From NCBI GenBank assembly GCA_018817715.1, contig JAHITT010000006.1:218804-282803 (forward strand): DNA of 64,000 nucleotides, given 5' to 3'. The DNA comes from Patescibacteria group bacterium (lineage in GTDB: Bacteria; Patescibacteriota; Patescibacteriia; Veblenbacterales; UBA10138). The stretch's first letter is position 1; each line of letters begins with the position of its first letter. The position numbers and the translations under genes were made by a program. The notes beneath the pieces are model-generated. The model saw only the letters and a list, made by a program, of their open reading frames with translations, searched no databases and was not told where the DNA came from. This document shows positions 49,978-61,353 of the stretch, one piece after another.

Positions 49978-50363
49978 TGGTGGAGGTGACGGGGATTTGC
50001 ACCCCATGTCTAGCTACTAAGACAATATATTGGCTCCAGGTTCAGTACCGCTAAGTACCAAAAACGAATCAAGCGGTACCAAAGTTCGTTTTTGGATTGC
50101 CTTGAATTATCAAATCATTAAACGCAAGACAAACGCTTAACAATCGGCCCGATAAATGACATTCCCTTAGATTATCAGACATGTGTCCAAAGGAACGGCT
50201 AAAGCTTAATTAAGCTAAAGCTGGCGCAAAATTCAAAGAAGCAAAAGCTCCCTTAAACTTGCTGACAAATGACTTGGCATTTGTAAGAGTGCGATTTTTT
50301 ACGAGACCCGCCACTCGACCTGCTAACATATCACTTAATAACTATCGAATTGTAAACACCCCC
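49978..50363 (-). ncRNA. ssrA: tmRNA (SsrA)
   Basis: Minus strand 5' GGGGGUGUUUACAAUUCGAUAG... and 3' ...GGGGUGCAAAUCCCCGUCACCUCCACCA. A 7-bp acceptor stem pairs GGGGGUG with CACCUCC (one G-U), with T-arm and encoded CCA. Internal tag ORF GCC AAG UCA UUU GUC AGC AAG UUU AAG GGA GCU UUU GCU UCU UUG AAU UUU GCG CCA GCU UUA GCU UAA encodes (A)KSFVSKFKGAFASLNFAPALA*. CUCGUAAAAA precedes the tag region as in E. coli tmRNA. smpB is adjacent. Confidence 0.8.
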
Positions 50364-50418
50364 CACTATTAGCCATTAGCTATTGGCTAATAGTGCCGAG
50401 TGTTTACTTTAAAATAGT

Positions 50419-50865
50419 TTACTTTTTTAATGAACGACTTAACTCGCGCTTGGTTTCACGTTTTCTTAAAGCGTCCCTTTTATCATAACGCGTTTTTCCC
50501 CGCGCTACAGCTATTTCAAGTTTGATAAACCCGTGCCTAGTATAAACAGAAACGGGTACCACTGTCAAGCCTTTTTCCCTTTGTTTACCCAACAAATAAC
50601 CAAGCTCTTTGGCTTTAAGTAGTAGCTTGCGATCGCGAATCGGATCATAAGCCACTTGCCATCCCTTAGCGGGCGGATAAGCTGCAATATTAAGCCCGGT
50701 TATCCATAATTCGCCCTGTTTAGGTATTACATAAGCCCCATGCAAATTAATCCGACCGCCTTTAGCCGATTTTACTTCCGCACCTTCCAATACCAAACCG
50801 GCCTCGAATTTATCCAGGATTTGATAATCGTGTCGGACTTTTTTATTATCAGCTAAAATAGGCAT
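50419..50865 (-). CDS. smpB: SsrA-binding protein SmpB
   Basis: 148 aa. ...NKKVRHDYQILDKFEAGLVLEGAEVKSAKGGRINL... with a basic C-terminal tail, canonical SmpB. Immediately upstream of ssrA. Confidence 0.9.
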   Translation of the reverse strand: MPILADNKKVRHDYQILDKFEAGLVLEGAEVKSAKGGRINLHGAYVIPKQGELWITGLNIAAYPPAKGWQVAYDPIRDRKLLLKAKELGYLLGKQREKGLTVVPVSVYTRHGFIKLEIAVARGKTRYDKRDALRKRETKRELSRSLKK

Positions 50866-51414
50866 AATTCTATTTTAAATTGTTTTACTTAAATAGGCTA
50901 ACATTAAACCACAGCTCTCTAAACTTGACAATAAATTATATTTATTTAAAGATAGGCCTACTAAAACAAACTTAGGTAAAAAAATGGATTCTAAAACATT
51001 AATTGATTTACTCTTTATAGATATAACAATAGTAATAATAGTATTACTTGTGTATCTATACATAGAAAGACGCCGTAAAAAAATATTTTTATACGGCAAA
51101 CAAAATGGTTTTTTAACAAAATATTGGGGCAATTTAAAAAATTACCGCTTTAATTTTTCTCTGTCTCTATCTCTGTCTAAATTTAAAAAATTTAGACTTC
51201 CCAAAATAGAACCCCTTAAAATACTTAATCTATTTAATCTTAATTTAAAAAAATTAAAACCTAAATTATTAATTAACAAAAAAAATACTGAAGAAATTAT
51301 TAAAAAAGACTTACCTCCTCCAAATGACAAAAAATTACTAATAATAAGCTTATACTTAATAAGTATAGGAATAATGAGTTTAATTTATTTAATAATTTAA
51401 ATGAGGGTTAATAA

Positions 51415-51555
51415 AATGGGACTTAAAGATCTTTGGGAACCAATAACTTATATTGCCGGGGCTGGAATATTAGTAATATTCTGTTTTTTTATAAAAGATA
51501 AAATCAAAAAAATAAAAAACAACAAATTGCCACGGTTCTATCGCCCAGAAAAATA
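51415..51555 (+). CDS. Possible small membrane peptide (46 aa)
   Basis: ATG at 51415 (MGLKDLWEPITYIAGAGILVIFCFFIKDKIKKIKNNKLPRFYRPEK*). One hydrophobic helix. Followed 20 nt later by a strong terminator. Below the ORF-track length cut-off, so low confidence. Confidence 0.25.
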
Positions 51556-51576
51556 ACATTGAATTGTTTAAACTAG

Positions 51577-51615
51577 ACTCCGCACTTCCTTTGGTTGTGC
51601 GGAGTATTTTTTTAT
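51577..51615 (+). terminator. Intrinsic terminator
   Basis: 9-bp stem actccgcac (51577-51585) / gtgcggagt (51597-51605), 11-nt loop, then aTTTTTTTat (51606-51615). Confidence 0.55.
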
Positions 51616-51842
51616 GGAACCACACAACTTAACAACTGTGATATCTCTCCATACCCATCCAGTCTGCCATGCGACATCCGCCGAAGCTAACTTACGTTTA
51701 TAGCTGGCAACTAATCCACACCACCTTCACCCACTTCCTTAACTAAAGAGCGTTTTTAGACGGAGGCGGATAAATATTCAACATTTTAAGATATCCTAAC
51801 CTCATAGCCACCTTATCGCCAAAGCTCTTAAAAACTTGCTTG

Positions 51843-51878
51843 CGGGGATTTATGTCCACGTGGACATAAATCCCCGCA
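51843..51878. repeat. 36-bp perfect palindrome (18-bp arms, CACGTG centre)
   Basis: gcggggatttatgtccac|gtggacataaatccccgc. T-runs occur on both strands just outside it (aaaggcttttta on plus; aagcaagttttt on minus), so it could act as a bidirectional terminator or a dimeric-protein binding site. Confidence 0.7.
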
Positions 51879-51910
51879 AAGGCTTTTTACCATATAACAA
51901 GTGTTCTTTT

Positions 51911-51990
51911 GTCATTGCGAGGGAGCACAACGACCGAAGCAATCTTAAATCAGATTGCCACGTCGGCTTTACAATCTCCTCGCAATGACA
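51911..51990. repeat. Hairpin repeat, family member A (12-bp perfect inverted arms around a 55-nt loop)
   Basis: gtcattgcgagg (51911-51922) ... cctcgcaatgac (51978-51989). The loop contains a second stem, gcaatct-taaatc-agattgc. The arm core GTCATT-GNGAG resembles the 26-mer family below. Confidence 0.6.
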
Positions 51991-52027
51991 GGCTAATTAA
52001 TTTATAAATTTTTTTGACAAAATAAAT

Positions 52028-52066
52028 AAGCCGTACAATTAATAATTATAATTAATGTACGGCTCT
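52028..52066. terminator. Bidirectional hairpin terminator after membrane-protein gene 52076-52546
   Basis: agccgtaca-attaataattataattaat-tgtacggct, with T-rich runs on both strands. Confidence 0.45.
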
Positions 52067-52075
52067 TTTAATATT

Positions 52076-52546
52076 TTAGAGAAACGTTTTCAGGCTGTTA
52101 ATAAATGCTGGAGAAAAACGTTTTTTATCCTCCTGGATTAATTTTGCTTTTTTCGCCAGCAAATCATTAAAATTAGAAATTGCTTTGCTTAAGCCTCCTA
52201 CCACAACAGCCAAACCGATAACCAAATACGCCAAACCTTTAAAAAACAAATATATAAGGGTAAAGAGATTATAAAAACCTCTGGCATAATTGGCACGGAC
52301 ATTTAGATATTTAATACAGATAATTACCGACAAAAACAGAAACAATAACAAGAACATATTCAGAAAATCTGTACCTAGTAAAACGCCTGCGTTAAATGGT
52401 TTGGTAATATTAAACCTTGGATCCTGACCAACCTCATAAAGCACCATTAATATAAGATTAATAAATGCTACAAAGGTTATAATAGCGAATAACAGGAGAA
52501 AAAAATCAATAATTGTTTTTTTAATAAACAACATTGCCTTTTTCAT
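52076..52546 (-). CDS. Hypothetical 4-TM membrane protein
   Basis: 156 aa, hydrophobic helices (FFLLLFAIITFVAFINLILMVLY, FLNMFLLLFLFLSVIICI, LFTLIYLFFKGLAYLVIGLAVVVGG). No motif recognized. Confidence 0.55.
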   Translation of the reverse strand: MKKAMLFIKKTIIDFFLLLFAIITFVAFINLILMVLYEVGQDPRFNITKPFNAGVLLGTDFLNMFLLLFLFLSVIICIKYLNVRANYARGFYNLFTLIYLFFKGLAYLVIGLAVVVGGLSKAISNFNDLLAKKAKLIQEDKKRFSPAFINSLKTFL

Positions 52547-52839: not shown

Positions 52840-52926
52840 GTCATTCTGAACAAAGTGAAGAATCTTATATTTGTTATTTTTGTATATTGCTTAAATTTAG
52901 AGATCCTTCGCTACGCTCAGGATGAC
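52840..52926. repeat. Hairpin repeat, family member B (26-nt inverted arms, 34-nt loop)
   Basis: gtcattctgaacaaagtgaagaatct (52840-52865) and its inverted partner agatccttcgctacgctcaggatgac (52901-52926). 20/26 complementary plus G-U pairs. Confidence 0.65.
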
Positions 52927-52950
52927 AAATACTAATAAACAATAATAAAG

Positions 52951-53069: not shown

Positions 53070-53600
53070 TTGAAAAATCTACTAACAACCATCGTCGTCA
53101 TCTTTTTGATGACTGTATCCGTTTTTGCTCAAACAAAAACGGATAAGGCTATCCGATTTTATCCCAGCTACATATTTGTGGCTGGTGTACGCGCACATAA
53201 CGGACCCGGCTTGGTAATTTCCTTGCCAGGAGAAACCGGCAAATTCCGCGTAATGTTTTTTGCCAAATCTCTAGCTTGGGGCGTTTATGAAGAACGAGGG
53301 CTAGGTCTTGAATATTCTAAGTTATTAAACCAACCCACTGACAACCCTCGGTACCGTATTACTGGTGGTACAATCTACAGCGTCGAAAATCTATATGGTG
53401 ACGCTAGGTTGCCGGAAAAAATGTTAACCCTATATTGCGGCGGAAGCATGGTGTACGATATAACTTCATTCTTAACAACTGAGGTCGTACTGGCACCAGC
53501 ATTTACCACTCTGGTGAGTTTACCATCGGATTATTGGTTCCGTACGGATGGCTCACAATTTGGTTTATCCGGACGTATCGCTTTCAGGTTTAAAATGTAA
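53070..53600 (+). CDS. Secreted beta-barrel-like protein (OmpX/OmpW-like small outer-membrane-protein architecture), TTG start
   Basis: TTG at 53070, 6 nt after AAGGAG. Signal peptide MKNLLTTIVVIFLMTVSVFAQ-TK. Alternating hydrophobic/aromatic beta-strand pattern throughout, C-terminal ...GRIAFRFKM. GC markedly higher than the genome background. Confidence 0.55.
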   Translation: MKNLLTTIVVIFLMTVSVFAQTKTDKAIRFYPSYIFVAGVRAHNGPGLVISLPGETGKFRVMFFAKSLAWGVYEERGLGLEYSKLLNQPTDNPRYRITGGTIYSVENLYGDARLPEKMLTLYCGGSMVYDITSFLTTEVVLAPAFTTLVSLPSDYWFRTDGSQFGLSGRIAFRFKM

Positions 53601-54511: not shown

Positions 54512-54582
54512 AGATTCTTCGCTACGCTCAGAATGACGTTAGACAGTCATCCTGAACGAAGCGCTAGTGAAGTGAAGGATCT
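54512..54582. repeat. Hairpin repeat, family member C (26-mer plus inverted partner, 8-nt loop)
   Basis: agattcttcgctacgctcagaatgac (54512-54537), identical to the copy at 54908-54933 and 24/26 to the copy at 52901-52926. Partner gtcatcctgaacgaagcgctagtgaagtgaaggatct (54546-54582). Confidence 0.7.
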
Positions 54583-54584
54583 CG

Positions 54585-54866
54585 CTATTCAATTAAATCT
54601 CTAAATTCCGGATTAATCGTTTTAATTAAATCTATTTTTCTTTGCCTAGTCCAACCTTTTATTTTCTTTTCTACAGTAATAGCCTGCTGTGGCGAACTAA
54701 ACTCTTCAAAAAAGACTAATTTATTTACTTTATATTTATTGGTAAATCCAGGCACTAACTTATTCTTATGTTCATGCATCCGCCTATCTAAATTATTAGT
54801 CACTCCGGTATACAAAACCGTATTGCTTTTATTAGTAACAATATACACATAACAACGTTTAATCAT
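54585..54866 (-). CDS. GIY-YIG nuclease-superfamily small protein (YhbQ/UPF0213-like)
   Basis: 93 aa. CYVYIVTN...VLYTGVTNNLDRRMHEHKN contains the GIY, YIG, conserved Arg and Glu positions of the GIY-YIG fold. Flanked on both sides by identical 26-bp direct repeats. Confidence 0.8.
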   Translation of the reverse strand: MIKRCYVYIVTNKSNTVLYTGVTNNLDRRMHEHKNKLVPGFTNKYKVNKLVFFEEFSSPQQAITVEKKIKGWTRQRKIDLIKTINPEFRDLIE

Positions 54867-54907: not shown

Positions 54908-55044
54908 AGATTCTTCGCTACGCTCAGAATGACAATGAAAATAAACGCAACGAAGAATAATAATAAAAATATAATACAGCTTAAAATGACAACAAAAAAA
55001 CCTGGCTCAGAATGACGACACAAATAAACGTGACTAAGAATGAC
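54908..55044. repeat. Hairpin repeat, family member D plus degenerate partial copies
   Basis: agattcttcgctacgctcagaatgac (54908-54933), degenerate partner ...cgcaacgaagaata (54945-54958), then partial cores aaaatgac (54984-90), gctcagaatgacg (55005-17), actaagaatgac (55033-44). Confidence 0.6.
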
Positions 55045-61155: not shown

Positions 61156-61251
61156 GGCAAAGCTTATTTAGTTTTTGCCCCATTTTTAAAACTAGATAAA
61201 TTCCATACTAAACGGGATTGAATTTAAAAAATAAATACTTACGTACTAAGC

Positions 61252-61326
61252 GGGCTCGTGGTGTAGCCCGGTTAACACGTCTCCCTGTCACGGAGAAGAT
61301 CGCCGGTTCGAATCCGGTCGGGCCCG
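61252..61326 (+). tRNA. tRNA-Asp (anticodon GUC)
   Basis: Manual cloverleaf: acceptor GGGCTCG/CGGGCCC (one T-G), U8, D-stem GTGT/ACAC, anticodon stem TCTCC/GGAGA with loop CTGTCAC (GTC), T-arm GCCGG-TTCGAAT-CCGGT, discriminator G. CCA is not encoded. Confidence 0.85.
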
Positions 61327-61353
61327 CTTAGTACGTAAAACCAAAAAAAGGTT

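Follow-up and report, generated by a model that had tools for sequence, protein, structure and literature searches.

What fills a stretch of about 400 nt that separates two converging transcription units and carries no gene of appreciable length? The question is raised by positions 51616-52027 of a 64-kb piece of a Patescibacteria (candidate phyla radiation, CPR) chromosome; the whole piece is referred to here as the window, and the stretch is a gap adjoining smpB-ssrA. A first-pass annotation had noticed a palindrome in it and considered a bidirectional terminator, the operator of a dimeric repressor, part of a structured non-coding RNA (ncRNA) or a recombination site. The first two are now the lead candidates, the one for its A5/T5 flanks and a call on both strands, the other for a frozen 6-2-6 core, and they are not fully separable. 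We favour, tentatively and with less than even confidence, a conserved cis-acting site that would be read by a sequence-specific dimeric factor and would stop transcription in both directions at this locus; both this function and the factor itself are putative. The main rival to this reading is a plain terminator, followed by a site of the repetitive extragenic palindrome (REP) type or a recombination site. To our knowledge, almost nothing is known of gene regulation and of transcription-unit boundaries in uncultured Patescibacteria.

A perfect palindrome of 40 bp

The sequence TTGCGGGGATTTATGTCCAC|GTGGACATAAATCCCCGCAA at 51840-51879 is a perfect palindrome of 40 bp with arms of 20+20 nt. The 36 bp described in the first-pass annotation are a real and perfect core of it, displaced by one base from the position first given (51842-51877). 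The apex TGTCCA-NN-TGGACA, with CG at its centre and an AT-rich shoulder ATTTA, lies at 51853-51866 in the window. Among the perfect zero-spacer palindromes of the window it stands alone in length, the runner-up having arms of 9 nt, and the half-site does not occur a second time in the 64 kb even when 3 mismatches are allowed. Block shuffling of the window (200 shuffles) gave longest arms of 7-12 nt versus the 20 observed, in agreement with the initial opinion that such a palindrome is improbable by chance in 64 kb.

The RNA hairpin formed by the palindrome has a predicted energy of -34 to -35 kcal/mol on either strand, a stem of 18-20 bp and a z-score of about -8. It is flanked by an A5 tract 5 nt to its left (51830-51834), which provides a T5 run after the hairpin on the - strand, and by a T5 tract 4 nt to its right (51884-51888), which provides a U-run on the + strand. 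A consensus terminator scan calls the palindrome on both strands.

The palindrome is no assembly artefact: its flanks are found exactly in Logan contigs and orthologous palindromes exist in other genomes. Two Logan contigs of run SRR6514274, L003 at its start and L027 at its end, are identical to the window on both flanks and break off within the palindrome. This run is a separate assembly from the 531-kb ENA contig to which the window belongs (ERZ27247128 k141_780464, NCBI locus tags KKC17_) and may or may not be a separate sample. Both breaks fall at window positions 51850-51870, as a k=31 graph cannot pass a perfect palindrome longer than k, and a k=141 contig crosses the palindrome with unique flanks on both sides. 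Perfect palindromes that exceed the k-mer of the assembler split contigs, and such elements are therefore systematically under-counted in metagenomes.

A family with a frozen apex and covarying arms

The existence of a palindrome family, its synteny, the covariation of its arms and its frozen core all emerge from comparison of the sequences. The members, whose core motif is written as TGTCCANNTGGACA, are the window copy, those of contigs L037 and L036/L033 (strain variants of one another), that of L029/L030, that of L035 and two copies in L038. A strict scan of the whole JGI collection with GGGATTTNTGTNCAN{0,8}TGNACANAAATCCC returned four contigs, and an inverted-repeat survey added two sites. 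The motif is rare, with one copy in 64 kb and one strict match per contig of 121 kb and 140 kb, counts that are lower bounds since palindromes longer than the k-mer under-assemble; the possibility that it is a common genome-wide terminator motif is thus set aside. Scanning 290 kb of sequence with a covariance model of the family brought no new members. In a looser viral scan a similar palindrome was found on a contig with a divergent family B DNA polymerase; the outer arm was repeated in it but not the core, and the resemblance was judged coincidental. None of the members lies inside a gene or clearly between divergent genes.

The palindromes of L037/L033 and L029 occupy the syntenic convergent junction of the window copy. 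On one side are one or more small membrane-protein genes adjoining smpB, on the other the converging membrane-protein gene, and the palindrome is found past the terminator-like hairpins of these genes. SmpB is 70% identical to the window protein in L037/L033 and 72% in L029/L030. Between the window and L033 the converging membrane protein retains only 24% identity; the flanking intergenic DNA cannot be aligned. When the stretch is compared by blastn with the loci of these relatives, the palindrome alone matches. Their syntenic gaps measure 221-280 nt and contain neither the spacer sequence nor the hairpin repeat that accompany the palindrome in the window.

The palindrome itself has 34 of 40 bases in common between the window and L037. 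In L029 the outer arm is wholly swapped (CATATGTAAAAAA for TTGCGGGGATTTA) while TGTCCA-GA-TGGACA is kept. Contig L035 carries a near-identical palindrome in another context, just past the terminator of a lipoprotein-like gene; a gene whose translation reads as relA/spoT starts 96 nt farther on. One flank of this palindrome matches that of the window over about 15 nt. L038 has two perfect copies, of 22+22 nt (954-997) and 17+17 nt (1609-1642), which bracket a gene for a 178-aa protein with PaaX_M (Cas2-like) and winged-helix domains. Outside the two L038 palindromes there is a 56-nt direct repeat of 80% identity (818-873 / 1675-1730), and none of the six reading frames is open in the 460 nt to the right (1643-2104).

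Covariance analysis, one of the checks that had been proposed at the outset, brings out the two sides of this conservation. When 8 sequences are aligned, a single substitution, in the strain variant L036, is the only departure from identity at the 12 specified core positions, and 11 of the 18 stem pairs have changed on both sides. Paired cells amount to 97.9%; sliding the partner by 1-3 columns lowers this to 36.8-51.4%, and all shuffles fell short of the real values. The covariation is similar when the doubtful phage sequence, L029 and the second L038 copy (L038b) are left out, with 7 pairs in 5 sequences. The central dinucleotide differs among members (CG, GC, CC, GA), as expected of the uncontacted centre of a site bound by a dimer. 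The alignment indicates that two constraints act jointly, one keeping 18-20 bp self-complementary and the other keeping the apex in sequence. An invariant 14-bp core at one junction in three genomes, next to a protein whose identity has fallen to as little as 24%, offers a handle on a trans-acting factor; if the palindrome were only a terminator the finding would be an ordinary one.

Factor-read site or plain terminator

The favoured reading, a site for a dimeric factor that also stops transcription, supposes that the palindrome of the window is a vertically inherited copy of a rare conserved cis element. A sequence-specific dimeric factor would read the 14-bp apex TGTCCA-NN-TGGACA with its AT-rich shoulder. 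The rest of each arm, as the covariation suggests, would be kept self-complementary, making an 18-20-bp hairpin possible in RNA or in extruded DNA. At this locus the A5/T5-flanked site may be a fail-safe bidirectional stop or insulator that blocks mutual read-through of the converging units, through the RNA hairpin, a protein roadblock or both. Elsewhere the palindrome probably overlaps promoter -35 boxes, including that of the winged helix-turn-helix (wHTH)/PaaX_M gene that it brackets. This overlap and the bracketed gene point to an operator-type function, with that regulator family as the candidate reader.

The promoter-like contexts are clearest in L038, where each copy offers a -35 box, TGGACA, followed 16-18 nt later by TAnnnT; start codons are found 51 and 53 nt after the copies, and one of the two belongs to the bracketed PaaX_M/wHTH gene. 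In L035 a -35/-10 pair, TTGCTT-17-TATAGT, was recognised by eye but not by the promoter scanner; the palindrome precedes it by about 30-40 nt. No promoter-like site starting at the palindrome was detected by the promoter scan in the window, L029 or L037.

A second palindrome family around another regulator gene suggests that regulator-specific palindromes recur in these genomes. Two perfect palindromes at L037 1138-1179 and 1769-1806 (L033 3698-3739 and 3071-3108) bracket a Trp_repressor-family gene that is not present at this position in the window or in L029. They have a common core, CTGCTTCGCTGCTCG|CGAGCAGCGAAGCAG, with outer arms that differ but are compensated, and they are unrelated to the TGTCCA family. 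The edge of the upstream one forms, as read by eye, a TTGAAT-17-TATAAT promoter for that gene. Separately, a perfect hairpin with a 17-bp stem, built from the GTCATCCTGA repeat motif, is found just downstream of the tmRNA gene at L037 137-176 (L033 4701-4740). Depending on the strain, the 6-nt loop reads TGTCCA or TGGACA, the hexamer of the palindrome core, which may be a coincidence.

Several observations weigh against the favoured reading. The orthologous L029 and L037 sites have no T-run within reach of the stem, so canonical termination is no conserved property of the family, and where the window does have T-runs, the gap of 4-5 nt between stem and run is suboptimal for a terminator. Both neighbouring genes have canonical terminators of their own, which leaves an extra stop without obvious need. 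In none of the three syntenic genomes is there a promoter or a gene downstream of the palindrome for an operator to control, and no PaaX_M homologue was found near the other copies or anywhere in the 64 kb. A pure double-stranded DNA operator leaves unexplained why the arms covary over their outer 4-8 bp. The family amounts to only five independent sites in four organisms.

The rival that survives best is a plain bidirectional Rho-independent terminator, in which the RNA hairpin and the A/U tracts would halt residual read-through and the apex would be kept by common descent and slow evolution of the stem. It accounts for the very stable hairpin called on both strands and for the position of the palindrome, between converging genes in three genomes and past the upstream gene's 3' end in L035, the L038 contexts being less certain. 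It also fits the covariation that keeps the stem paired and the T-runs present in the window (both strands, 4-5 nt off the stem), in L035 (- strand) and in the first L038 copy, L038a (+ strand). The missing T-runs of L029 and L037 count against it, and so do the canonical terminators that both neighbouring genes already have. The arrangement is analogous in L029, L037 and L035, where the gene's own terminator comes first and the palindrome follows. The two lower-stem mismatches of L035 are C.A on the strand with the T-run and G.U on the opposite strand. Another objection comes from the apex, which is identical in L029 despite full replacement of the stem and identical again at non-orthologous sites; termination imposes no such constraint, and the canonical terminators of the neighbouring genes show no sequence conservation between these genomes. 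We regard the plain terminator as unlikely, though as the most serious competitor of the factor-read site.

A broader proposal, which we put forward with low confidence, is that TGTCCA-NN-TGGACA palindromes represent a new Patescibacteria pair of cis element and reader. The palindrome would be a hairpin-capable operator for a wHTH-Cas2-like (PaaX_M) or other CPR-specific factor. It would autoregulate the small regulator genes that it brackets, possibly mobile cassettes, and would form a protein-dependent transcription barrier at convergent junctions. Other sequence-conserved families of perfect palindromes in these genomes could work likewise.

Possible mobile elements and roles in chromosome maintenance

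The palindrome might instead be REP-like, mobile or recombinogenic, either a low-copy selfish hairpin or the site of a site-specific recombinase that moves small gene cassettes, with the window holding an empty or solo site. The recombination site of the first-pass annotation is retained under this heading, although no feature supporting it specifically was found. The occurrence of the same palindrome in unrelated gene contexts suits this explanation, as do the L038 copies that bracket a single gene inside a 56-nt direct repeat, and the inserted L037 regulator gene between two copies of another palindrome. The one-sided flank of about 15 nt common to the window and L035, the variable region beside smpB-ssrA with allelic replacement between strains, and the several sequence-conserved hairpin families of these genomes can be added.

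The low copy number is at odds with mobility, and the position of the palindrome is stable across three diverged genomes. Its outer tips, where a transposase would cut, are variable and its centre is conserved. By eye there is no target-site duplication at the palindrome ends, nor a GTAG. No transposase or recombinase gene was noticed near the copies, where only some of the neighbouring ORFs are annotated. The breakpoint of strain-level recombination between L033 and L037 lies away from the palindrome. A single recombinase would explain the sequence difference between the two gene-bracketing palindrome families less well than two regulators would. This explanation is improbable, more so than the plain terminator.

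A role in chromosome maintenance, as a dif (Xer), parS (ParB) or protelomerase target, is largely refuted and hardly to be credited: a conserved and apparently single-copy palindrome is what such a site would be, its CACGTG centre recalls parS and its perfect symmetry recalls telomere-resolvase sites, but the GC skew is uniformly negative with the same gene orientation on both sides, the 6-2-6 core disagrees with the 11-6-11 layout of dif, each half-site matches only 4 of 8 positions of parS (consensus TGTTNCACGTGAAACA, compared by eye), the relatives have CAGCTG, CACCTG or CAGATG instead of CACGTG, the k=141 contig runs through the site in a way that a hairpin telomere would not permit, and no maintenance genes of this kind are nearby. 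The skew ranges from -0.12 to -0.37 across the window without a change of sign, and together with the unchanged gene orientation this places neither an origin nor a terminus in the region.

The remainder of the stretch and its neighbourhood

The stretch is a patchwork of five parts: a terminator, a spacer, the palindrome, a hairpin repeat and an opposing terminator. The first is the intrinsic terminator of the upstream small membrane-protein gene (51570-51612, + strand), GACTCCGCAC...GTGCGGAGT followed by T7, a hairpin that appears in both whole-region folds. The last is the terminator hairpin of the converging 156-aa gene (52030-52063, - strand), which is T-rich on both sides and is recognised from sequence and folds.

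The spacer of 227 nt (51613-51839) has a guanine-cytosine (GC) content of about 0.41 and folds no better than its shuffles (z = -0.29 on the + strand and -0.22 on the - strand). Its six-frame translation meets stops in all frames and has no Pfam match, tblastn with the neighbour proteins of relatives finds nothing that would make it a pseudogene or a small-protein gene, and no homologues were found in the window or in related loci by blastn, nhmmer or Smith-Waterman alignment. It may be decayed DNA. Two candidate relationships were rejected: a 21-nt direct repeat (76%) hinted at a decayed copy of the hairpin repeat, for which the hidden Markov model (HMM) of the repeat family gives no support, and a motif seemingly common to the spacer and L038 (CGACATCCGCC...GGCGGATAAA) aligns locally no better than shuffles.

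The hairpin repeat of 84 nt (51908-51991) reads GTCATTGCGAG...GAAGCAATC-loop-GATTGC...CTCGCAATGAC. The 12-bp inverted pair reported earlier is real and does enclose an inner stem; it is a perfect pair of 13 nt, starting at 51910 (51910-51922/51978-51990), and the fold has z = -6.5 and -6.8. The pattern occurs in at least 92 IMG/VR contigs, with six copies in one Helicobacter prophage record. An HMM built from 107 copies in 92 IMG/VR loci gives with nhmmer a single match in the window, at 51908-51991 (E = 3.6e-11); Rfam has no family for this repeat. It is a lineage-specific insertion, not found at the syntenic sites of L029 and L037. A phage and plasmid search with the whole stretch matched only the hairpin repeat, in the Helicobacter prophage record, and nothing meaningful for the palindrome. 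The literature yielded nothing relevant on the core motif of the palindrome, on the hairpin-repeat sequence or its pseudo-peptides, or on Patescibacteria LexA motifs.

This composition speaks against the idea that the whole 400-nt stretch is one structured ncRNA gene, to which we give next to no credence: the stretch is ORF-free, moderately GC-rich and folds as a whole with z of about -8 versus shuffles, but that signal comes wholly from four separate hairpins while the 227-nt remainder has z of about -0.3 on both strands, relatives show no conservation outside the hairpins and have syntenic gaps of only 221-280 nt, and no promoter-like site was found that could drive such a transcript. The Rfam scan that had been recommended found, at the gathering thresholds, only the tmRNA and a tRNA-Asp in the window, both elsewhere; in 51400-52200, with E up to 10, it gave only spurious sub-threshold matches of microRNA type to the hairpins.

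The initial description of the stretch as free of open reading frames (ORFs) holds, as there is none of 60 aa or more between 51556 and 52076 and the longest is of 50-51 aa. Its description as GC-elevated stands in part. The GC content is 0.39-0.445 versus 0.18-0.27 in the immediate flanks, and with a window mean of about 0.36 the contrast arises mostly from unusually AT-rich flanks.

To the left of the stretch are argS, rplT, rpmI, infC, the tmRNA gene (49978-50363, - strand) and smpB (50419-50865, - strand). Rightwards from smpB run two genes for small membrane proteins, at 50984-51400 and 51401/51416-51556, and the 156-aa membrane-protein gene converges on them (52076-52546, - strand). The 156-aa and 138-aa flanking proteins have only self-matches among 5.8 billion proteins. 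The contig of the closest GTDB relative stops short of this region. Two further inverted repeats involve structural RNA genes. One, imperfect (78%) and 40 nt long, immediately follows the smpB stop codon at 50340-50419 and pairs the tmRNA 5' end with the upstream leader. The tRNA-Asp (61252-61326) lies within a 20-nt inverted repeat (61239-61258 / 61319-61338, 95% complementary) that lengthens its acceptor stem by about 13 bp and may be a precursor-processing helix.

To the right of the stretch, a second hairpin of a related subfamily (GTCATTCTGAAC...GCTCAGGATGAC) is found at 52840-52928, upstream of a gene for a 176-aa secreted protein. Its counterparts by position are L029 1467-1538, L033 1191-1258 and L037 3625-3693, and their presence in all three related genomes would fit a conserved leader or a regulatory hairpin better than a repeat inserted at random. 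Strains L033 and L037 are 97% identical over 3.9 kb and then unrelated from within a gene for a secreted protein of 177/179 aa, which corresponds to window 53070-53600. With the window protein the L033 allele has 79% identity, though SmpB is only 70% identical, which suggests allelic replacement or lateral exchange of this gene.

Farther on, a 93-aa GIY-YIG gene (54585-54866, - strand) is bracketed by direct copies of GATTCTTCGCTACGCTCAGAATGAC and resembles a small mobile unit. The GATTCTTCGCTACGCTCAGAATGAC sites, half-sites nearby included, are at 54513-54537, 54546, 54909-54933 and 55016, and all 8 half-sites of this repeat superfamily in the window fall within 51.9-55.0 kb. A general association of the hairpin repeat with GIY-YIG genes was rejected, as only 1 of the 92 viral loci with the GTCATTGCGAG hairpin encodes a GIY-YIG relative. 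A further sequence-conserved hairpin family, (CTCC)ACTTTCTTT(G)-loop-(C)AAAGAAAGT(GGAG), has three copies in 10 kb of one Patescibacteria locus (L005 499-532, 7442-7477 and 7807-7842). Stems similar to it are present at L004 4680-4705, in the closest relative of the window, and at L018 1187-1216, in a metagenome-assembled genome labelled Deltaproteobacteria.

Comparison with known systems

The palindrome resembles bidirectional intrinsic terminators in its long GC-containing hairpin, A- and T-tract flanks, convergent genes and, in the window, the call on two strands. It differs from them in an apex conserved across diverged genomes and unrelated loci, in orthologues without a T-tract, in neighbours that have terminators of their own, and in the 4-5 nt that separate its stem from the T-run.

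Palindromic operators of autoregulated dimeric HTH/wHTH repressors include the LacI/CcpA type TGNAANCGNTTNCA, the 6-2-6 PrfA box TTAACANNTGTTAA and the GntR/PaaX type TGT...ACA. The invariant 6-2-6 core, the free central dinucleotide and the AT-rich shoulders recall these operators, as does L038, where the core overlaps the -35 box of the wHTH regulator's own promoter and the second copy precedes the next ORF. Unlike them, the palindrome spans 34-44 bp and has covarying outer arms, neither of which an operator needs, and neither the window nor its two syntenic relatives offer a promoter for it to control. We know of no operator consensus that matches the core.

REP sequences and bacterial interspersed mosaic elements (BIMEs), with their REP-associated tyrosine transposases (RAYTs), are likewise extragenic, hairpin-forming and sequence-conserved palindromes past gene 3' ends, and the L038 gene between two copies recalls RAYT genes flanked by REPs. 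The palindrome is, however, of very low copy number versus tens to hundreds per genome, perfect instead of imperfect, and conserved in position between diverged genomes. The window copy has no GTAG, and no RAYT/IS200-like protein is among the annotated ORFs near the sites. With dif, pdif and integrative mobile elements exploiting Xer (IMEX) the family shares a short conserved palindromic site, single or paired round a small cassette, in varied gene contexts; it differs in lying off any GC-skew switch, in lacking the 11-6-11 architecture and similarity to the dif consensus, and in having no linked Xer gene.

Hairpin palindromes at convergent junctions are thus already familiar, and so are palindromic operators. 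What is unusual here is that a frozen apex goes together with arms that covary freely, that diverged CPR genomes keep this combination at one syntenic site, and that it is used again beside a regulator gene elsewhere.

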